In this document: one piece after another, positions 3,776 through 53,876 of the stretch
Layout of the letters: each line of letters begins with the position of its first letter
Numbering within the stretch: the first letter of the stretch is position 1
NCBI GenBank assembly: GCA_018830565.1
Contig: JAHJRX010000062.1
Coordinates: forward strand, 2,324-66,323
Reading direction: 5' to 3'
Source: a bacterium
GTDB lineage: Bacteria; UBA9089; JAHJRX01
DNA: 64,000 bases
Made by a program: the position numbers and the translations under genes
The notes under the pieces: model-generated
Databases searched by the model: none
What the model was told of the DNA's origin: nothing
Seen by the model: only the letters and a program-made list of their open reading frames with translations

Positions 3776-3835
3776 AAAGAGGGTTCTTCTATGAAGCGAT
3801 TAGAAGTATAAGTTTTAAAAAGAGGGTTCTTCTAT
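3748..3835. repeat. Tandem duplication (units of 45 and 43 bp) of the junction between the TPR gene stop and the ABC gene RBS/ATG
   Basis: GAAGCGATTAGAGGTTTATAAGCCTTAAAAAGAGGGTTCTTCTAT is followed directly by GAAGCGATTAGAAGTATAAGTTTTAAAAAGAGGGTTCTTCTAT. The first unit carries the real stop codon of the 3035..3775 ORF. Confidence 0.85.
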
Positions 3836-3860
3836 GTTAATTGTTTCAGTGAAAGATGTA

Positions 3861-4040
3861 TATGCAATCCATTAATTAAGTTGACATACCTCGTAGGGAA
3901 AATCCACCCCCTAACCCCCGCCAGCGGGGGACAGCCTCGTGGATGTCCGTTGTTTCGTTGCCTTTTCGGACAGGGACAAGCTTATCCCCCGCTGGCGGGG
4001 GTTAGGGGGTGGAAATACAACTAATTTATCAGATTGCATG
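3861..4040. mobile_element. MITE-1 copy A: ORF-less 180-bp element with TATGCAAT termini, flanked by duplicated TA
   Basis: Termini are TATGCAATCC...GATTGCATG. TA is present at 3859-3860 and 4041-4042. The uninterrupted target GATGTAGTTAAG survives in the intact gene copy near 4115-4126. Nested inverted repeats are CCACCCCCT/AGGGGGTGG and CCCCCGCCAGCGGGGG/CCCCCGCTGGCGGGGG. Confidence 0.8.
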
Positions 4041-4097
4041 TAGTTAAGAAATAAGTAAGGGTCAAAGCAAAGGCCTGGCCAGTAAGGGGATTCTTTT

Positions 4098-4781
4098 ATG
4101 TTAATTGTTTCAGTGAAAGATGTAGTTAAGGAATATAAGCTTGGCAAAACAAAGGTGAATGCCCTTAGAGGGGTAAATTTAGAGATTAAAGACAGAGAGC
4201 TTGTCGCGATCTGTGGTCCTTCAGGCAGTGGAAAAACAACTTTACTTAATATTATTGGCTGCTTGGATCAGCCCACCTCTGGAACAGTTCAAATTATCAA
4301 TGAAAATGCCGCTTTTTTTTCTGATGCCAAGCTTTCTGAATTACGAAATAAGCACCTTGGTTTTATCTTCCAAACCTTTAATCTTATTCCTGTCCTTACT
4401 GCTTACGAAAATGTAGAATATCCCCTCTGGATTTTAGGAAAGCCAGGTCTTGAAAGAAAGGCTATGGTTCTAAAAATGTTGGATGAAGTAGAATTACTTG
4501 ACTATAAAAACCATAAGCCTGATGAATTATCTGGTGGACAAAGACAACGGGTAGCTATTGCCCGAGCCTTAGTAAATATGCCTAAACTTGTCTTAGCAGA
4601 TGAGCCAACGGCCAACTTAGATTCCCAGACCGGAATGAGTATTTTAAAACTTATGCAAAAGATAAATGAGGAGTTTTCTACAACCTTCATCTTCTCTACC
4701 CATGATCCACAAGTAGTAAAGTATGCCAATAAAGTATATCACCTCAGGGATGGCAAGGTCTCGGAATTAACGGAGGGATAA
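4098..4781 (+). CDS. ABC transporter ATP-binding protein (MacB/LolD-like)
   Basis: Walker A GPSGSGKTT, signature LSGGQRQR, Walker B LVLADEPT, and a histidine in STHD. Confidence 0.85.
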   Translation: MLIVSVKDVVKEYKLGKTKVNALRGVNLEIKDRELVAICGPSGSGKTTLLNIIGCLDQPTSGTVQIINENAAFFSDAKLSELRNKHLGFIFQTFNLIPVLTAYENVEYPLWILGKPGLERKAMVLKMLDEVELLDYKNHKPDELSGGQRQRVAIARALVNMPKLVLADEPTANLDSQTGMSILKLMQKINEEFSTTFIFSTHDPQVVKYANKVYHLRDGKVSELTEG

Positions 4782-10513: not shown

Positions 10514-12091
10514 ATGATAGAAGGATTACTCATACTCATAATATTTCTGCTTATTGGCACTGTAATATTAGTAGTCCGATTACAGTCAAAATTATCGCAG
10601 GTTGATCTCCAAATGGTTTTATTTTCTCTCGACAATCTGGACAAGGGAATTATAAGAATAGAATCAACCCTGAGAGATGATCTCTCCAGAAATCGAGACG
10701 AAACAAATCGCAACTCAAAGGAAGCCAGGGAGGAACTAACCAGATCTTTCCACTTGTTTGGCGAATCTGTTTCAACTAGAATGGGTCAAGTAGCTGATAT
10801 GCAGAAGAATCAGTTAGAAACCTTTGCCAGTAACTTGTCTTTGTTGACCCAAACAAATGAAGAAAAATTAACTCAATTAACTAACACGCTTGGTTCTAAG
10901 CTTGACACATTTCGAGAGAAATCTGAATTAGCTGCCAGGGAGAATCGAGAAGAGTTGACAGCTTCTCTCAAGTCTTTTCAAGATCAGTTTAAGGCAAGTG
11001 TTTCAGAATTCAATGACTTGCAAAAGCAGAAGTTTGATGGACTGGCCATAAAGCAAACCGAACTTCTTCAAGTAACTGAGCAACGTCTTGAAAAAATGCG
11101 AGACACTATTGAGATCAAGCTCAAATCTATCCAAGATGATAACAGTGACAAGCTTGAACGAATGCGTCAAACAGTTGACGAAAAATTGCACAAAACTTTA
11201 GAAGATAAGCTTGGGCATTCTTTTCAAATGGTTAGTAATCGTTTAGAGCAAGTTCAAAGAGGACTTGGGGAAATGCAGACCCTGGCTAACGGCGTTGGCG
11301 ATCTAAAGAAGGTGCTTTCTAATATAAAAACCCGGGGCTCACTTGGGGAGTACAGATTAGAAATGATCCTGGAGGCTATTTTAGCTCCTGAGCAGTATGC
11401 CAAGGATGTTGTTACCAAGGAGGGAAGCAGAGAAAATGTTGAGTTTGCCATCAAGCTTCCATCAAAAGACAACGAAATAGACTTCATTTGGCTTCCGGTC
11501 GATGCAAAATTTCCTCGTGCTACTTACGAAGCACTTCTGAACGCTTATGAAAAAGCTGATCTTGAGCTGGTCGAGGTAGCTACCAAAGAATTAGAAAAAA
11601 CAATCAAGTTGTTTGCAAAGGATATTAGGGATAAGTATCTTAATCCTCCGGTAACAACTGACTTTGCAATAATGTTCTTACCCTTCGAAGGCTTATATGC
11701 CGAAGTGGTAAAACGCCCTGCCCTTTTTGAAGTACTTCAAAGAGACTTCCGGGTGAATGTTGCTGGCCCTTCGACCTTTGCTGCCCTTATTCATAGCCTG
11801 CAAATGGGTTTTCGGACCCTGGCTATTCAGAAAAAATCAAGCCAAGTCTGGTCTTTACTTGGTGCAATCAAGACTGATTTTGGAAAATTTGCCACCATCC
11901 TTGATGGAATTAAAAATAACCTCCAGATTGCCACTAACAAGGTTGAAGATGCCAGTAAGAAGTCCAGAACCATTTCACGTAAGCTAAGGGATGTCGAGGC
12001 TTTACCACAAGCTGAGGCTGTTATCTTGTTAGACAATGATTCTGAGATAGATGCCGAAGAAACTAACGAGTTGATCCAAGAAAATCTATAG
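10514..12091 (+). CDS. rmuC: DNA recombination protein RmuC
   Basis: N-terminal TM helix, a long coiled coil and a C-terminal RmuC nuclease-like region (FAIMFLPFEGLYAEV). Confidence 0.8.
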   Translation: MIEGLLILIIFLLIGTVILVVRLQSKLSQVDLQMVLFSLDNLDKGIIRIESTLRDDLSRNRDETNRNSKEAREELTRSFHLFGESVSTRMGQVADMQKNQLETFASNLSLLTQTNEEKLTQLTNTLGSKLDTFREKSELAARENREELTASLKSFQDQFKASVSEFNDLQKQKFDGLAIKQTELLQVTEQRLEKMRDTIEIKLKSIQDDNSDKLERMRQTVDEKLHKTLEDKLGHSFQMVSNRLEQVQRGLGEMQTLANGVGDLKKVLSNIKTRGSLGEYRLEMILEAILAPEQYAKDVVTKEGSRENVEFAIKLPSKDNEIDFIWLPVDAKFPRATYEALLNAYEKADLELVEVATKELEKTIKLFAKDIRDKYLNPPVTTDFAIMFLPFEGLYAEVVKRPALFEVLQRDFRVNVAGPSTFAALIHSLQMGFRTLAIQKKSSQVWSLLGAIKTDFGKFATILDGIKNNLQIATNKVEDASKKSRTISRKLRDVEALPQAEAVILLDNDSEIDAEETNELIQENL

Positions 12092-13641: not shown

Positions 13642-13642
13642 T

Positions 13643-13758
13643 TATAGTAGTTATTAACGAAAACCGGACATAGAAAATAATACCGAGCAATAAAATATAA
13701 ACTTGCTTGTCCTTAAATTAATTTGCCCTATGTCAAATTTCCATTAATAGGTTCTATA
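13643..13758 (+). mobile_element. MITE-2 copy 1 (about 115-bp ORF-less repeat)
   Basis: TATAGTAGTTATTAACGAAAAC...CTATGTCAAATTTCCATTAATAGGTTCTATA. The termini are imperfect inverted repeats, and it shares its full length with the copies at 18065, 27562, 49267 and 53582. It ends 3 nt before the def ATG. Confidence 0.8.
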
Positions 13759-13761
13759 AAT

Positions 13762-14301
13762 ATGGCTATTTTACCTATAAAGAAATATCCCGATCTCGTT
13801 CTTCGTGAAAGAGCTAAAGAAGTTAATAAGATAAAGAAGAGAACGATCAGCTTAATTAATAACATGATAGAGACGATGTTGGCTAAAAAAGGAATTGGGT
13901 TAGCGGCTAATCAAGTAGGTGTTTTGCAGAGAATTATTATTGTTGATGTTGCTTCTTTAAACGGAGATAGAGAAAAGGCCCATGAGCGCGATTTGATCGT
14001 TCTTATTAATCCCGAAATCTTATTTCAAGAAGGAGAAACTATGGCGGAAGAAGGATGTCTGAGTTTTCCTAAGATTATGGGAAAAATAAAGAGAGCCTGG
14101 AAGATAAGAGTGAAAGGTCTTAATATAAATGGGGAAGAGGTAGAGATAGAAGCTACTAATTGGCCAGCGAGAGTCTTTTCTCATGAAATTGATCATCTTA
14201 ATGGGGTTTTATTTATTGATCGGATGGATAAAGAGACCAAAGAAGCGATCAAAGATCAATTAGGAATGTTAAAGAAAAAGAACCAACGTGATGAGGTTTA
14301 A
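13762..14301 (+). CDS. def: Peptide deformylase
   Basis: Motifs GIGLAANQ, EGCLS and HEIDH. I place the start at the ATG at 13762 (MAILPIKKYPD..., the canonical Def N-terminus). The track start at 13723 lies inside the MITE. Confidence 0.9.
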   Translation: MAILPIKKYPDLVLRERAKEVNKIKKRTISLINNMIETMLAKKGIGLAANQVGVLQRIIIVDVASLNGDREKAHERDLIVLINPEILFQEGETMAEEGCLSFPKIMGKIKRAWKIRVKGLNINGEEVEIEATNWPARVFSHEIDHLNGVLFIDRMDKETKEAIKDQLGMLKKKNQRDEV

Positions 14302-14498
14302 AGATTAATTAGGCATGTTAAAGAAAAAGAACCAACGTGATGAAGTTTAAAGATTAATTAGGCATGTTAAAGAAAAAGAACCAACGTGATGAGGTTTAAA
14401 GATTAATTAGGCATGTTAAAGAGAAAGAACCAACGTGATGAAGTTTAAAGATTAATTAGGAATGTTAAAGAGAAAGAACCAATGTGATGAAGTTTAAG
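14251..14498. repeat. 49-bp tandem repeat, about 5 copies, spanning the def stop and the start of the downstream gene
   Basis: Units start at 14251, 14300, 14349, 14398 and 14447. Consensus is AAAGATTAATTAGGCATGTTAAAGARAAAGAACCAAYGTGATGARGTTT. There is no unique spacer between units. Confidence 0.95.
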
Positions 14499-15271: not shown

Positions 15272-18027
15272 TTACTTAATAATAGCCATCTTTCCTTTAG
15301 CTTTTACTCCTGTCTCGTCGGAAACTAAGTAGAAGTAAACACCACTAGCTACCAGATCTCCTTTATCGCTCCGTAAATTCCATTCCATCTCTGGGAAGGT
15401 AATATCCATAGTTTTTATTAATTCTCCTACTTGGTTATAAATCTTGATTTTAGTATTATTAGAAGTAGGTAGATTAACAAAGGTAACTTTTTCTTCTGTT
15501 CCCTTGGCAAGCTTTAAAGGATTAGGATAATGAGAAATTTCACCGCTTTCTAAAGAAAGGACTTCTATCAGACGATAAATGCCAAAATTATTAATAGAAG
15601 TTGAAACAGTTTTAGAAGTAGGATCTATTTTTTGTTTTGCGTCAACTAAGATCCATCTTTCTTTTTTTTCATTAAGATAGAAAATTCTAAGACTTTTTTC
15701 TTTAATCTTTAGCTTTGAAACTGCTTCTGGAGAATAAGGAATAGCAATAGTAGTCTCTTTAACTTGAAGAGAAGACTTTTGGGCAGAGGAGATGCTAAGA
15801 GTATTTCCATAGATACTTAAAGCTTTAAACTCATAGGTGGTGTTATTTAAAGCGGTGGATAAACTTAAATTTTTATCACTTAAGACTAAAGCATTTGCTT
15901 TGGCAATAGCTGGGTTATTAGGCTTGTCATTGATGATGACATAGGCATCCATAGAAAGATTTTTTGCCGCTATGGTAATTGTTGCTCCACTAGAGCTAAT
16001 AGTAATCCCTCCGGCAGAAGCTTTAGTAACAATAGTAATCTTACCTTCTCCATAATCGTAGACCGGTGAATTGACAGAATCTTTAATCTTGCCTAAGATA
16101 TAAAAGTATCTTGTCCAAGGACACCAAGAAGGAATTTTAGAGAGATCTAAGAGATAGGTATCAGCATCGCCATCAAGATCTTCTTTAATTCCTGTAGCTA
16201 TTACTCCCCATTCTTTTCCCTCGGTCTCTGAGGTGTTGTTATCTTTATTCTTGTCTTTATCCCAGAATAAGGTGATATCAGCATTATCGTCAACATCAGT
16301 GTCTTCCCATTTAATGAGGTATTCGGTAGAGGCAGTGCCATCTTTGTCTGGAGGTTGGGTAATGGTGATGGTAGGGGGAATGTTAAGAGAAGTAATCTCC
16401 ACTACTTTGGAGAACTCAGAGGTATTGCCATCTTTATCGGTAGTCGTAGCCGTAATCTTGTCCCCTGCTTTAAGATTACTTAGAGTAATATCGAGATTAA
16501 AGTTACCATTTGCTCCATTAGTAAAGCTACTTAAATAAGTCTTTCCTTCTCCATAACCAGTAGAGTCAACCTCAGCTAAAAATATTTCGATGTGGTAGAG
16601 CCTCCAAAGAGACATTGTCCAGCTTCGCTGCCTACATAACCTTCTAAGTGAAGAGTATTGCCGCTTAAGGTTGCTTTAGTAATTACTGGGAAATCTATGC
16701 CTCTATTTCCATAATCATCATTATACTTTCCATCATTTAAGGTTACTCCCCATGTTTGTCCAATAGAAAGGTCGATGCCTAATCCATCGAAGGTTATATT
16801 TTCTTTTTCATTTATGTAGATATTATGGTAGATAGAATTTTGAGTAATTGTATTTTTAAGGCTATCTTCTTGATAGACATAGATACCTCCAGCCCAACCA
16901 CTATTAGTAATAGTATTTTTCTTTATTAAATTATTACTACATCCTTCCCATAATCCTATACCTGCCACACTATTGCCATCAGACTTTCCATCTGGAGTAA
17001 TGCCAAAATAGTTTCCTATGATAGTGCTCTGATCAAAGTTTATACATTCTAACCCTTCGCCGCCATCACCTGCTCCAGTAATATAATTAGCATCTTGTAG
17101 TTTATCGCCACCAACAGTATTTCCAAAGCTGTTCTTAAAGGCCACGAGATCATCTTGTTTTTTATAGTTTCCATGTCCCTTCCAATAGATGCCCCGAAGA
17201 ATAATATTGTTAGCACCTATAACATAAATTAATTCATCATATACTTCTTCAGGCCCCATAACGACAATTCCTGGCCCCCCTGGATATGCTCCTTTGCCCC
17301 ACTGAGCAGAGGCATCGAGAGTAAGATTATCATCAGTAACGGTGGGAAGAATACCTTGATCAGATTCATCAATAGTAAGATTTATGGAACCAAATACTTT
17401 AAAGATACTGGCATTTGCTCCTTTAACAGCATTACCATTTTTGATGAACTGTCTAAGAGAGCCTTGAGCAGCATCATTGGTATTAACGATCAGATTAAAG
17501 TTAAAACCAAAATTAATACCACTGACATTACCTGCATTTACGACTACTTTTGCCTTATGTTCATACTTGTTGTTTGTAAAATCATCAGCCACCTTTGAGT
17601 CTTGCCCTCCGAACTTTTCTCCGGTGTTTTCAGAATCTGCCTGGTAGGTTTGTTCAGCCCAAACATCACTTAAACTGAAGCAACTGTTATAACCAGCTTT
17701 TGGAGCTACCTCCTTAGAATTAACGACTACATAGTAGGTACCATTAAGTAGATTAGAAAAACTATAGTCTCCATTAGCATTAGTAGTGGTGGTAGATAAA
17801 ACAGTTCCTCCTGAATTTAAAAGTTTTACCATAACATTACTTTTACCTTCATCTCCTGTTTCAAGAGCATCTCCTTCTCCATCGATGTCTTCAAAGACCT
17901 GGCCAGAGAGGGCAGAGTAACAAAAGATACCTACTCTGTGATTACAAGCATCAGCCGCCGGGGCAACTTGGCCATAAATCCCCAAAATCATTCCCAGAAT
18001 CAACGCCAATCCCCATATTTTCTTCAT
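15272..18027 (-). pseudogene. Large secreted surface protein with SdrD/Cna-B-like domain, parallel beta-helix repeats and a T9SS/FlgD-Ig-like C-terminal domain, split by a -1 frame change near 16576-16615
   Basis: ORFs 16576..18027 and 15272..16615 overlap by 40 nt and read as one protein: ...GYVGSEAGQ / IEIFLAEVDSTGYGEGKTYL.... The first has a signal peptide. The C-terminus is ...GVYFYLVSDETGVKAKGKMAIIK. This could be a true frameshift, a recoding site or an assembly error. Confidence 0.55.
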
Positions 18028-18064: not shown

Positions 18065-18393
18065 TATAGTAGTTATATGCAATCTGATAAATTAGTTGTA
18101 TTTCCACCCCCTACCCCCGCCAGCGGGGGACAGCCTCGAGCTTATCCCCCGCTGGCGGGGAACAGCCTCGTGTGGATGTCCGTTGTTTCGTTGCCTTTTC
18201 GGACAGGGACAAGCTTATCCCCCGCTGGCGGGGGTAGGGGGTGGATTTTCCCTACGAGGTATGTCAACTTAATTAATGGATTGCATATATTAACGAAAAC
18301 TAGACATAGGAAATAATACCGAGCAATAAAAGATAAACTCGTTGGCACTCAATTAATTTGCTCTATGTCAAATTTTCATTAATAAGTGCTATA
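18065..18393 (+). mobile_element. MITE-2 copy 2, interrupted by MITE-1 copy B
   Basis: The left 11 nt TATAGTAGTTA and the remainder TATTAACGAAAACTAGACATAGG...CATTAATAAGTGCTATA are separated by the 212-bp element. Removing the element and one TA restores TAGTTATTAACG. Confidence 0.8.
18076..18287. mobile_element. MITE-1 copy B (212 bp), with the core inverted relative to its arms and an extra truncated core module
   Basis: Termini are TATGCAATCTG...GGATTGCATA with TA on both sides (18074-75 and 18288-89). The 16-mers lie at 18114-18129, 18146-18160 and 18219-18234. Confidence 0.8.
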
Positions 18394-18408
18394 AGCTGAT
18401 TAATCGGC

Positions 18409-19425
18409 TTACTTAAAGTTATTCTTATCTTGGCCTTCTTGATCATCTTCATCTTCTCTAACTTGGCTAAATTTAAAAAGAGGATTTTGGCTATAAGAGA
18501 TGCTTATTCTAATCATATTGCCTAAGTCTCCATAAGGGACATAAGAAAGATCAAGATTAATAAGACTACATTTAAGACCAAATCCAAAAGTAAATTGGCT
18601 TCCTATATCTTGAGAGGCGGTAGAATAACCTCCTCTAAGAGAGAAGTTATTAAATAAGCAATATTCAAATCCACTCTTAATATTTAAGTCATTATCTATA
18701 GGTTTACTAATGTCTATAGCTAATAGCAGCTTATCATTTAAGAGCTTAAAAGAAGTTCCCAGCTTAATAGTTAAGGGAAGTTTGTCTTTTTGGTTAAGAT
18801 AGGTCATTTTACTTCCTAAATTTAAGACAGCAAGTCCAAAAGAGAGATTATCGTTTAAAATATCTTTAGCTAAAAAACCAGTATCAAGGGCAAATCCTAA
18901 AGCAGATTCTTTTTCAATATTTCCTCTAATAAGTTTTAAATTATTGCCAAAAGAGAGATGAGAAGTAATCTTTTTAGCATAAGAAAGAGAGATGGCTAAA
19001 TCTTGGGCCGAAAATATATTACCTGTTCCCGTAGGATATAAAGAATTTGTTTCCTTAATATCTTTAATTCCAGCATAAGTTAAAGAAAACCCTAAGCTAC
19101 CTTTTTCCTTTAAATTTACTCCGTAAGCTAAAAAACCATAATTACTATCCATAAAAGCTTGGTTATACATAAAAGTTACTTCTTGTCCTTTGATATTGAC
19201 CAACCCAGAAGGATTATAGTAAAGAGAGTTAATATCGTCAGCTATCGCGACAAAAGCTCCCCCCATAGCTACAGGTCGAGATCCTACTTCTGACTTTAAG
19301 AAGTTAGCCGTGGTAGTTCCACTGCTTTTTGCCCAAGTTATTTCTGAAAAAGTGAAGATAAAAATGAAGATAAAGAGTATAAGATGAATAAAGATAAGAT
19401 TAAACTTTATTTTATTTGTGATCAT
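18409..19425 (-). CDS. PorV/PorQ-like outer-membrane beta-barrel protein
   Basis: Signal peptide, then GSRPVAMGGAFVAIADDINSLYYNPSGL, a motif I associate with the PorV/PorQ family. Lies next to a protein with a T9SS-like C-terminal domain. Confidence 0.5.
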   Translation of the reverse strand: MITNKIKFNLIFIHLILFIFIFIFTFSEITWAKSSGTTTANFLKSEVGSRPVAMGGAFVAIADDINSLYYNPSGLVNIKGQEVTFMYNQAFMDSNYGFLAYGVNLKEKGSLGFSLTYAGIKDIKETNSLYPTGTGNIFSAQDLAISLSYAKKITSHLSFGNNLKLIRGNIEKESALGFALDTGFLAKDILNDNLSFGLAVLNLGSKMTYLNQKDKLPLTIKLGTSFKLLNDKLLLAIDISKPIDNDLNIKSGFEYCLFNNFSLRGGYSTASQDIGSQFTFGFGLKCSLINLDLSYVPYGDLGNMIRISISYSQNPLFKFSQVREDEDDQEGQDKNNFK

Positions 19426-27544: not shown

Positions 27545-27561
27545 GATTCATATTCCTCCTT

Positions 27562-27670
27562 TATAATGGTTATTAACGAAAACTGGACAATGAAATAGTT
27601 CCGAGCAATAAAAGATAAACTTGTTTGCCCTCAATTAATTTACTCTATGTAATTTTCATTAATAGGTAAT
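27562..27670 (+). mobile_element. MITE-2 copy 3
   Basis: TATAATGGTTATTAACGAAAACTGGACAATG...CTCTATGTAATTTTCATTAATAGGT. The left end lies 3 nt from the RBS of the response-regulator gene. Confidence 0.75.
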
Positions 27671-31692: not shown

Positions 31693-31704
31693 CTTTTTAA
31701 CTTA

Positions 31705-31884
31705 TATGCAATCTGATAAATAACTTTGTATTTCCACCCCCTATCCCCCGCCAGCGGGGGATAGGCTTGCCTTGTCCGAAAAGGCAACGAAACAACGGAC
31801 ATTCACGAGGCTGTCCCCCGCTGGCGGGGGTTAGGGGGTGGATTTTCCCTACGAGGTATGTCAACTTAATTAATGGATTGCATA
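31705..31884. mobile_element. MITE-1 copy C (180 bp)
   Basis: TATGCAATCTG...GGATTGCATA with TA at 31703-04 and 31885-86. It is the reverse complement of copy A along its whole length, and lies 12 nt upstream of the menG start. Confidence 0.8.
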
Positions 31885-31901
31885 TAATCCTTAGAAACTT
31901 A

Positions 31902-37791: not shown

Positions 37792-37871
37792 ATTCTTTTA
37801 TCCCTATTAAATTATCCAAAAGCATTTAAAGATGCTTGATTGCATTATTATTTTCTATAGTTAAGCGTCTT

Positions 37872-37926
37872 TATAGTAGTTATTAACGAAAACCTTGCAT
37901 AGGAAATAATACCGAGCAATAAAAGA
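37872..37926 (+). mobile_element. MITE-2 copy 4, left half only
   Basis: TATAGTAGTTATTAACGAAAACCTTGCATAGGAAATAATACCGAGCAATAAAAGA, after which similarity is lost. Confidence 0.65.
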
Positions 37927-38100
37927 GAAAAAAGGTGTATCTTCTCAAAATTTCATAGTAAACGGGAATTTAGGTTAAAAGGTTCTTTAAGCGGATTTAA
38001 AAAGATGAAAGCTTTATAGGAGGTCAGGCCAGAAGGAACGTCTGAAATATAATCTTCTTATTAAGAGACATTGCCAAATTTCATAATGAGAATTACTGAA

Positions 38101-49266: not shown

Positions 49267-49381
49267 TATAAAGCACTTATTAATGAAAGTTTGACATAGA
49301 GTAAATTAATTTAACTCCAAGCAAGTTTATCTTTTATTGCTTGGTATTATTTCCTATGTCTGGTTTTCGTTAATAACTATA
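49267..49381 (-). mobile_element. MITE-2 copy 5 (reverse orientation)
   Basis: The reverse complement reads TATAGTTATTAACGAAAACCAGACATAGG...CATTAATAAGTGCTTTATA. It overlaps the stop codon of the DUF721 gene by 5 nt and ends 8 nt before the DUF370 start. Confidence 0.8.
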
Positions 49382-52127: not shown

Positions 52128-53474
52128 TCATAAAGTGTCTTTTATTTCTTCTATAATCTTACCAAAGGACTCGATTTTTTCTATTTTTTCTTTAATCTTC
52201 TCATAAGCATGAATTACCGTAGAATGATCTCTTCCTCCAAAACTTGCCCCAATTTCAGCTAAAGATAAATCAGTTAACTCTCTACATAAGTACATGGCAA
52301 TTTGTCTTGGTAAGGCAATAGCGTTATTTTTCTTTTTTGTCTTCATATCAGCAAGATGTAAACTAAAGTGTTTTACAATCTTGTTTTGTATTTGTTCTAT
52401 AGTAATAGATTCAAGTTTATCTTCCATAAATGAGTCTTTTAGAATTTTTTTAGCAAAATTAAGATCTATATCTTGATCTTGGTTATTTAAAATATAAGAA
52501 GCACTTACTTTATTTAAGGCTCCAATTAATTCCCTAATATTTTTACTAACTTTAAAAGCAATGTAATTTATAATTTCATCAGACAAGTTTATCTTCTTTT
52601 CTTCTATTTTCTTTTTTAAGATAGCAATACGAACTTCTATGGAAGGAGTTTGAATATCAGTAGTAAGACCTGATTCAAACCTCGATCTAAGACGTTCTTC
52701 AATAGTAGGTAATTCCCGGGGAGGTTTATCGCTAGTGATAATAATTTGTCGATGAGATTCATATAAGGTATTAAAAGTATGAAAGAACTCTTCTTTAGTA
52801 TTATCTTTTCCAGCTAAAAATTGAATATCATCTATTAATAAAACATCTGTAGTGCGATACTTATTTTTAAAAGAAAAAATAGACTTATCGTATCTTATGG
52901 ATTCTATGAATTCATTAGTAAAACGTTCGGATGAAGTATAGACAATTTTTTTATTTGGATGTAACTTTAAGATTCTATGCCCAATAGCTTGAATTAAATG
53001 AGTCTTACCTAGTCCTACTCCTCCATAAATAAATAGAGGATTATAAGCAGAAGCAGGGGATTCTGAAACAGCTAAAGCTGCAGCACAAGCAAATCGATTT
53101 GATTCCCCGGTAATAAAATTTTCAAAAGTATAATAAGGATTAAGATCAATATGGGTTAATAAATTTTTATTTTCCTTGTTAATTTTATCTGGTAATCTAT
53201 CTTCTGATAAAGAAGGGACATTTTCATACTTAGAAACAGTGATACTTATTAGTTTTAAATCTTTATTATTAGAAATATTAACAAGTGTTTGAAGAAGTTC
53301 TTCTTTATACTCTTTCTCTATTTTATCTCTTATAAAATTATTAGGAACTTCAATCTCTACTTTCTTATCGGAAATAGATTTAAGCTTAGTTTGACAAAAC
53401 CATAAATTAAAAGATCTTTGACTAACCTTTTTTTTAATACTACTTAAGACTTCATGCCACAGTTTTTCATCCAT
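52128..53474 (-). CDS. dnaA: Chromosomal replication initiator DnaA
   Basis: GGVGLGKTHL Walker A, DDIQFL and a C-terminal DHSTVIHA DNA-binding signature. Confidence 0.97.
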   Translation of the reverse strand: MDEKLWHEVLSSIKKKVSQRSFNLWFCQTKLKSISDKKVEIEVPNNFIRDKIEKEYKEELLQTLVNISNNKDLKLISITVSKYENVPSLSEDRLPDKINKENKNLLTHIDLNPYYTFENFITGESNRFACAAALAVSESPASAYNPLFIYGGVGLGKTHLIQAIGHRILKLHPNKKIVYTSSERFTNEFIESIRYDKSIFSFKNKYRTTDVLLIDDIQFLAGKDNTKEEFFHTFNTLYESHRQIIITSDKPPRELPTIEERLRSRFESGLTTDIQTPSIEVRIAILKKKIEEKKINLSDEIINYIAFKVSKNIRELIGALNKVSASYILNNQDQDIDLNFAKKILKDSFMEDKLESITIEQIQNKIVKHFSLHLADMKTKKKNNAIALPRQIAMYLCRELTDLSLAEIGASFGGRDHSTVIHAYEKIKEKIEKIESFGKIIEEIKDTL

Positions 53475-53581
53475 AAAAATACCTTCTTTTTAGTAATTCC
53501 TTAATTATTGGGGGAAGTTATAGTTAAAGCGTGTAAGGCTCTATAGGAAGTAAGTATTCAGCCAAGCTGATACCTGACGCT

Positions 53582-53705
53582 TATAGTAGTTATTAACGAA
53601 AACTAAACATAAGAAATAATACCGAGCAATAAAAGATAAACTCGTTGGAACTCAATTAATTTACTCTATGTCCTCTATGTCAAATTTCCATTAATAAGTG
53701 CCATA
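53582..53705 (+). mobile_element. MITE-2 copy 6 (with a 9-bp internal duplication)
   Basis: TATAGTAGTTATTAACGAAAACTAAACATAAG...CTCTATGTCCTCTATGTCAAATTTCCATTAATAAGTGCCATA, in the divergent dnaA/ilvB spacer. Confidence 0.8.
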
Positions 53706-53782
53706 TTTATATTTAAGGATTATATTATCTATTATCCAAAAAAGTTATTCAAGAAAAAAAACACCTTAAAGCTAAAAAAAAT

Positions 53783-53812
53783 TTGACAATGATTTAAAAG
53801 TTGATATATAAT
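53783..53812 (+). promoter_or_regulatory. Sigma-70-like promoter for the ilv-leu operon
   Basis: TTGACA (53783-53788), an 18-nt spacer, then TATAAT (53807-53812), about 65 nt upstream of the ilvB start. Confidence 0.45.
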
Positions 53813-53876
53813 CTGCTAAAGTTTAAGAGAATTAAGAAATTTTAAGTTTAAAAAATTTTTTATTAAAAAGAGGGCC

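Follow-up and report, generated by a model that had tools for sequence, protein, structure and literature searches.

An inverted core in a MITE-like repeat family of an uncultured groundwater bacterium is probably an old spacer inversion fixed at its loci

Introduction

Bacterial MITEs that duplicate a TA upon insertion include the Correia/NEMIS elements, the pneumococcal BOX elements vary in the number of their boxB units, and quasipalindrome template switching occurs in E. coli. Inversion of the spacer or loop of a hairpin, together with homogenisation of its arms, has been documented as an outcome of template switching (PMC8604942, PMC8794818), and hairpin-associated inversions of tens of base pairs are common in plastid spacers (PMC2903610).

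Here we analyze a repeat element in a 64-kb stretch of bacterial DNA, which we call the window throughout and by which we mean the whole stretch of 64,000 nucleotides. The window is chromosomal, spans dnaA-dnaN-recF-gyrB-gyrA, carries housekeeping genes, and is 100% identical to contig k141_305434 of ENA assembly ERZ27247117. Its nearest GTDB representative is the MAG Yes70-06 (GyrB 81% identical, same gene order around the origin), and the syntenic origin region of that MAG holds neither the repeat family described here nor a second family that occurs beside it. A first-pass annotation of the window had reported that the core of the element is turned around in one copy, and had been unable to assign an invertible segment inside a MITE to a described class. 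Spacer inversion between short inverted repeats is, however, a described mutational class (PMC8604942, PMC8794818, PMC2903610), and we compare the element with it below.

Results

Architecture of the element

Three copies (A, B and C) of an approximately 185-bp, TA-flanked element with terminal inverted repeats (TIRs) lie within the 64-kb window. Their parts are as follows.

3859-4042, + strand: copy A, type I; TIR, long arm, repeat arm, core, repeat arm, short arm, TIR
3931-3985: core of copy A, 55 nt
18074-18289, - strand: copy B, type II; order on the - strand long arm, core, short arm, with the core inverted relative to the arms
18104-18129, + strand: left arm of the inner inverted repeat of copy B, CCACCCCC-TA-CCCCCGCCAGCGGGGG
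18130-18161, + strand: extra module of copy B, 32 nt, a truncated core plus the 16-mer variant CCCCCGCTGGCGGGGA
18162-18218, + strand: complete 57-nt core of copy B, which contains a TG insertion and runs opposite to the arms
18219-18244, + strand: right arm of the inner inverted repeat of copy B, CCCCCGCTGGCGGGGG-TA-GGGGGTGG
31703-31886, - strand: copy C, type I, the reverse complement of A
31761-31814: core of copy C, 54 nt

Starting from its long-arm end, the element consists of TA, the terminal repeat TATGCAATC, the long arm (with a TTGACAT motif), CCACCCCC-TA(A)-CCCCCGCCAGCGGGGG and a core of 54-57 nt, and continues after the core with CCCCCGCTGGCGGGGG-T(T)A-GGGGGTGG, the short arm, GATTGCATA and a closing TA. 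The 16-mer CCCCCGCCAGCGGGGG and its reverse complement are found at 3915/3986, 18114/18146/18219 and 31745/31815; within the window they are confined to the three elements, and their chance expectation was 0 in 100 shuffles. These positions bear out the first-pass statement that the core lies between the 16-mer and its reverse complement in all copies. The inner inverted repeat extends beyond the 16-mers, as CCACCCCCTA(A)CCCCCGCCAGCGGGGG(A), and makes a perfect, GC-rich stem of 27-29 bp. Left and right 16-mers are identical at 16/16 positions as inverted repeats and, because each of them is a near-palindrome, also at 14/16 positions as direct repeats.

The two outer arms, one long and one short in every copy, are diverged copies of each other, so that the whole element is an imperfect palindrome; both arms prolong the palindrome of the inner stem, and the arm junctions of the inner module fall at the identical nucleotide in every copy. 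The composition of the GC-rich centre contrasts strongly with that of the AT-rich arms. The inner repeat arms co-vary, with a matching extra C and extra G in one copy found outside the window (locus L006) and TAA/TTA in copy A where the other copies have TA/TA. Homogenisation of the arms would fit this co-variation, and selection for pairing would yield the same pattern.

Taken with its flanking letters (TAACCCCCGC..GCGGGGG), the 16-mer at 18114-18129, like all the others, is similar to type I-E-like CRISPR repeats, and the exact 16-mer is present in a Klebsiella CRISPR repeat variant (PMC8847753). We rejected a CRISPR repeat or mini-array as the identity of the element: the 16-mers are inverted with respect to the flanks, and the would-be spacers are the same core in all copies. 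Rfam gave no CRISPR-DR match, and Pfam scans of the window contained no Cas-associated families. On these grounds we judge the likeness to be probably coincidental, a matter of two GC-rich hairpins.

The core of copy B is inverted between the inner repeats

The central 27 nt of the core are identical in the three copies and lie on the + strand in A, the + strand in B and the - strand in C, and the long-arm motif GTTGACATACCTCGTAGGG lies on the +, - and - strands, respectively. The strands of these two markers place A and C in one core-versus-arm orientation and B in the opposite one, in agreement with the first-pass annotation. The call is unambiguous, as the core and its reverse complement agree at no more than 26/55 positions. 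The segment that the 16-mers enclose in type II copies is an exact reverse complement, the arms being unaltered, and the inversion breakpoints fall inside the flanking inverted repeat; from these two properties together, a flip between the inner repeats did happen.

The first-pass annotation had also described an extra module in copy B, at 18130-18160, which we confirm with slightly revised limits (18130-18161, 32 nt). It is made of ACAGCCTCG+AGCTTAT, that is, 9 nt from the start and 7 nt from the end of the core, followed by CCCCCGCTGGCGGGGA, and is a partial second tandem unit that lacks an internal 41-nt hairpin, not a separate type of part.

A dispersed family of MITE-like repeats

The family was surveyed with an exact 22-mer from the core as the query against metagenome contigs, GTDB representative genomes and viral contigs. 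The query hit 7 loci in metagenome contigs, whereas GTDB representative genomes and viral contigs each had 0 matches; searching the viral contigs with an arm motif or with the pair of 16-mers likewise gave 0. Altogether, the element occupies at least nine distinct genomic loci in one species-level population, three in the window and six in metagenome contigs. A tabulation of core orientation over these copies, which the first-pass annotation had proposed, yielded both orientations: type I at loci A, C, L003, L004/L005, L006 and L007, and type II at loci B and L001. The second inverted copy, L001, sits at an unrelated locus, between fliF and fliG.

Copies measure 184-216 bp, under the approximately 300 bp of a MITE, and are non-coding, with only stop-free stretches that lack homologues; one chimeric query joined from the translations of all six frames produced no scoring protein match. 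The terminal inverted repeats TATATGCAATC ... GATTGCATATA are found at both ends of nearly all copies, one end being missing in each of L005 and L006. Complete copies have TA at both ends, which can alternatively be read as part of the terminal repeat. Beside copy A, which is inserted at a TA in the duplicated 5' end of an ABC ATPase gene, lies a paralogous empty site, GATG-TA-GTTAAG, and its single TA supports duplication of TA upon insertion. At loci A, B and C the element is present in every strain examined. Pfam scans found no transposase encoded in the 64-kb window, Rfam searches (the window at the gathering threshold, copy B at a permissive threshold) gave only sub-threshold matches to generic hairpins, and the element sequences had no match in the searchable literature. 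Size, terminal repeats, TA ends and copy number all support the label MITE-like, and by these features the element is apparently a new family of approximately 185-bp non-coding MITE-like repeats of an uncultured low-GC groundwater bacterium.

At copy A, the beginning of the ABC ATPase gene (4098-4781) is duplicated over approximately 75 nt that include its RBS and first 9 codons (3790-3860 / 4043-4140); the intact downstream duplicate, which is the empty site just described, looks like a possible rescue of the gene start. At L004 (6095-7107), where a UPF0175 antitoxin gene is followed by a PIN-like toxin gene, the toxin gene is interrupted by the element. L005 has the element in common with L004 and matches it on one side (98% over 630 bp), but its other flank differs and the long-arm terminal repeat is missing; the difference between L004 and L005 suggests a rearrangement or deletion that ended in the element.

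The window also contains a second, unrelated palindromic repeat family of approximately 110-120 nt (ends TTAATGAAAATTTGACATAG...), with at least six copies.

13642-13758: second-family copy
18288-18394: second-family copy, directly adjoining the long-arm end of copy B
27561-27667: second-family copy
37871-37930: second-family copy, partial
49269-49379: second-family copy
53581-53705: second-family copy

This family is also found at L001, L003 and L006. It adjoins the first family at 4/9 loci, on the long-arm side at B and L003 and on the short-arm side at L001 and L006, and both families have inward-facing TTGACAT motifs near their ends. In the dnaA region (52128-53474 and 53475-53876), one second-family copy lies within the intergenic stretch upstream of dnaA where oriC is expected. 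A further repeat, at 14251-14497 between deformylase and radical-SAM genes, is a tandem array with a 98-bp period and approximately 2.5 copies that are 92-95% identical.

Fixed orientation and variable unit number across strains

The same loci were fetched from independent assemblies via the flanking proteins and their cluster members; the flanking DNA of the compared strains differs from the window by approximately 1-3.5%. Locus A is type I in 6/6 assemblies (window, GCA_043814425.1, GCA_018818825.1, ERZ27247128, JGI Ga0180007 and GCA_018823545.1), locus B is type II in 6/6 (window, GCA_043814425.1, Ga0180007, GCA_018818825.1, ERZ27247128 and GCA_018816215.1), and locus C is type I in 5/5. 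Orientation is thus a fixed property of each locus, at least at the consensus level, which is the orientation that assemblies report and at which minority flipped molecules at a locus would be invisible.

The number of 71-nt units, each a core plus a 16-mer, varies between strains at loci A and C. Locus A has one unit in three assemblies and at least two in three, locus C has one unit in four and two in one (GCA_018818825.1), and L007 has two. The truncated second unit of locus B is present in the window and in GCA_043814425.1 and absent in four assemblies; by contig, the 32-nt module is present in L114 and absent from L002, L113, L115 and L117. The junction 16-mer in these duplications takes the CTGG form at locus A and the CCAG form at locus C, L007 and B, and the occurrence of both forms is expected if the left and right 16-mers exchange or slip against each other.

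The short arm varies as well. Its TTGACAT segment has been lost by at least three different deletions, two distinct ones of 12 nt and one of 11 nt, seen at L114 compared with window 18085-18103 and at window 31714-31733. Because locus B itself shows two different 12-nt deletions in different strains (the second in GCA_043814425.1), the loss is apparently recurrent or spread by conversion, i.e., homoplastic.

The genes that flank copy B differ between strains too. Downstream of copy B, 15272-18027 (- strand) corresponds to one 917-aa T9SS-sorted protein in four other strains (L002, L113 and L115 were compared), and is split into overlapping ORFs of 483 aa and 447 aa in the window strain and also split in GCA_043814425.1; the two strains with the split gene are the same two that have the 32-nt module. 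The PorV gene (18409-19425) is intact in the window (338 aa) and split in other strains (87 + 253/264 aa).

Folding, transcription direction and a proposed history

As single-stranded DNA or RNA, the element is predicted to fold into one long hairpin, with predicted DNA folding energies of -57.6 kcal/mol for copy A (z = -10.2 against shuffles) and -66.5 kcal/mol for copy B (z = -10.3). Folding of both isoforms, another check proposed at first pass, gave nearly identical structures, and flipping the core in silico changed the DNA energy by at most 1 kcal/mol of about 57. With so small a change, the flip should be nearly neutral for structure.

The arms have a preferred direction relative to transcription. 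In 7/7 loci whose flanking genes, or interrupted gene, fix a single direction of transcription (A, B, C, L001, L003, L004 and L007), the arms run in the sense direction and the long one comes first, on the upstream side, a bias that is independent of core orientation (p ~0.016, two-sided, at small n). Read in the antisense direction, the element is predicted to form a big stem followed by AUUUUCC, resembling a terminator, and this terminator-like stem could explain the arm-direction bias.

Taken together, we consider it likely that copy B records an old, fixed spacer inversion, generated by template switching or by recombination between short repeats, with slippage as an additional process. 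At locus B and L001 the spacer would have turned over once in the past, in an event between the two repeat arms. We favor inter-strand template switching at a stalled fork or hairpin as the probable route; recombination between the short inverted repeats, with their 27-29-bp arms, is the alternative. In either case the flip would leave arms and fold as before and would then be inherited. Slippage or unequal exchange between the 16-mers, which are 14/16 direct repeats, would add or remove 71-nt units, and would do so frequently; the copy B module would represent a second unit after loss of the internal hairpin. We infer both the molecular route and the absence of a dedicated enzyme, and the data are compatible with template switching and with reciprocal recombination.

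The first-pass annotation had interpreted the arrangement as the footprint of recombination that flips the core, either as an invertible DNA switch or through recurrent hairpin-mediated rearrangement. The footprint stands insofar as a flip between the repeats occurred, but an active invertible switch is not supported, orientation being constant per locus; hairpin-mediated rearrangement, possibly recurrent, comes near to what the data support.

As a separate observation, the window encodes an RmuC-family protein at 10514-12091. In E. coli, members of this family are implicated in restricting inversion between short inverted repeats.

One inversion or two

A second reading shares the inversion and differs in how it spread. 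It holds that one ancient inversion produced an inverted master copy, which then transposed, so that the family consists of two stable subfamilies and B and L001 together form the type II lineage. We regard this as possible but doubtful. The known type II loci number just two, orientation is stable over 1-3.5% strain divergence, and the homoplastic short-arm indel is unusable as an argument for independent events, all of which the reading accommodates. Against it, B and L001 have no substitution in common that is absent from type I copies; the core of L001 does not differ at all from those of copy A and L003, both type I, and the TG insertion is confined to B. The asymmetry of the spacer between CCACCCCC and the 16-mers is opposite in the two copies (TA/TTA in B versus TAA/TA in L001), and the second repeat family adjoins B at its long arm and L001 at its short arm. 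The correlated arm substitutions by which the first-pass annotation would have recognized subfamilies of ancient divergence are thus missing, as B and L001 have no common diagnostic change. One inversion between the repeats is needed in any case, so that this reading differs from the old fixed spacer inversion in the number of events only, and on this number the sequence comparison leans tentatively towards two. A four-gamete argument for two inversions, built on the 12-nt short-arm deletion, was dropped, as locus B of GCA_043814425.1 has a different 12-nt deletion.

Readings that require active switching, nesting or artefact

It is quite unlikely that the element works as a contingency module, in which orientation and unit number change often within populations and tune the read-through or stability of operons, as a hairpin-driven MITE switch that is either enzyme-independent or recombinase-assisted. 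Were the state of the module to influence the operons around it (for example at fliF-fliG or upstream of a T9SS cargo gene), expression could vary heritably between strains by a simple means, but nothing in the data points to such an influence.

An inverton in the strict sense, with a tyrosine or serine recombinase encoded elsewhere that reversibly flips the core between the 16-mers and so alters the expression of neighbouring genes, is very improbable. Such a system would account for an asymmetric segment bracketed by perfect inverted repeats, for a family with both orientations, and for the position of all copies in or beside transcription units with arms in the sense direction. Yet the 5-6 independent assemblies of each locus agree on its orientation, the two states fold almost alike, and neither a recombinase in the window nor a promoter-like motif in the core was found. 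The Pfam scan of 50 window ORFs, together with Pfam notes for the three genes beside copy B, revealed no tyrosine or serine recombinase, so the linked enzyme that the first-pass annotation suggested looking for is not within the 64-kb window. A promoter inside the core was considered and rejected, there being no sigma-70-like site, with the reservation that sigma-70 may not match the promoter types of this lineage; the sole promoter-like site near copy B combines TTATCA of the short arm with TATAAT of the flank (18090-18063, - strand). Furthermore, the 55 bp between sites are, to our knowledge, far fewer than in known invertible segments, and would leave a site-specific recombinase very little DNA for synapsis. 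The suggestion of a working invertible switch is thus not supported, given constant orientation (A 6/6, B 6/6, C 5/5), no promoter-like site in the core and no recombinase in the 64-kb window.

We give even less credence to a nested module, in which the repeat-core-repeat hairpin would be an independent mobile element inserted, in either orientation, into an element made of arms only. The composition of the GC-rich centre, very unlike that of the AT-rich arms, speaks for it, but neither a solo module nor an arm-only element occurs in the window or at any fetched locus, the arm junctions are at the same nucleotide in all copies, and the arms on both sides extend the palindrome.

The chance that a de Bruijn graph crossed the core the wrong way, or added a spurious unit through inverted-repeat collapse, is negligible: Logan contigs do break inside the elements, so these repeats are hard to assemble, but type II stands at locus B in six assemblies from different projects, two of which have the same 32-nt module, and junction k-mers longer than the 28-bp repeat must presumably be in the reads for such contigs to arise. 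The artefact at 18130-18160 that the first-pass annotation had allowed for is ruled out, with the module in 2/6 assemblies and the inversion in 6/6. Recombination between two element copies was also rejected, since it predicts long-long and short-short chimeras together with a large chromosomal inversion, and every copy has one long and one short arm.

Discussion

The closest match to the inverted core is spacer inversion by template switching (PMC8604942; PMC8794818). In both, perfect arms enclose a spacer that is the exact reverse complement of its counterpart, the arms are unaltered or jointly homogenised, no dedicated enzyme would be required, and the event is in principle reversible and can recur. 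The described cases mostly involve spacers of 2-8 nt and arms of 9-16 bp, whereas here the spacer has 54-57 bp, the arms have 27-29 bp and the repeat is multi-copy; template switching is the putative mechanism in this element.

The hairpin inversions of plastids (trnH-psbA; PMC2903610; reviewed in PMC12371153) are similar in scale, as loops of tens of base pairs flip between inverted repeats of approximately 10-50 bp, and in behavior, as the state is usually fixed within a lineage and homoplastic across lineages. They concern single-copy spacers of organelles, whereas the present element belongs to a dispersed repeat family of a bacterial chromosome.

Invertons (fimS, hin and the invertible promoters of Bacteroides; PMC7641763, PMC2784873) have in common with the element a segment that is bracketed by inverted repeats and occurs in two orientations. 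In contrast to what we see here, they are polymorphic within populations, switch a promoter or coding sequence, are typically at least 100 bp long and need a recombinase; none of these properties was found for this element. The inner repeat doublet also recalls a REPIN, a pair of short palindromic REPs in inverted orientation that RAYT (Y1) transposases mobilise. What is conserved as the mobile unit in the present family, however, is the entire 185-bp element, terminal repeats and TA ends included, and Pfam scans gave no Y1 transposase gene in the 64-kb window.

As a repeat, the element resembles Correia/NEMIS and BOX elements, which are likewise small and non-coding, have TIRs and TA ends, lie between genes or within operons and form a long hairpin; with BOX it has in common a variable number of internal units, as known for boxB. 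It differs from both in having no sequence similarity to them, and the literature searched contained no description of inversion of an internal segment in bacterial MITEs. Assembly, the classification of repeats and comparisons between strains can all be led astray by elements of this sort. The phenomenon itself is a known class, hairpin or inverted-repeat spacer inversion, together with BOX-like variation in unit number, and the repeat family is new. The element is a clear bacterial case of a single short quasi-palindrome in two roles: as an inverted repeat, with a rare inversion that became fixed, and as a direct repeat, with frequent gain and loss of units.
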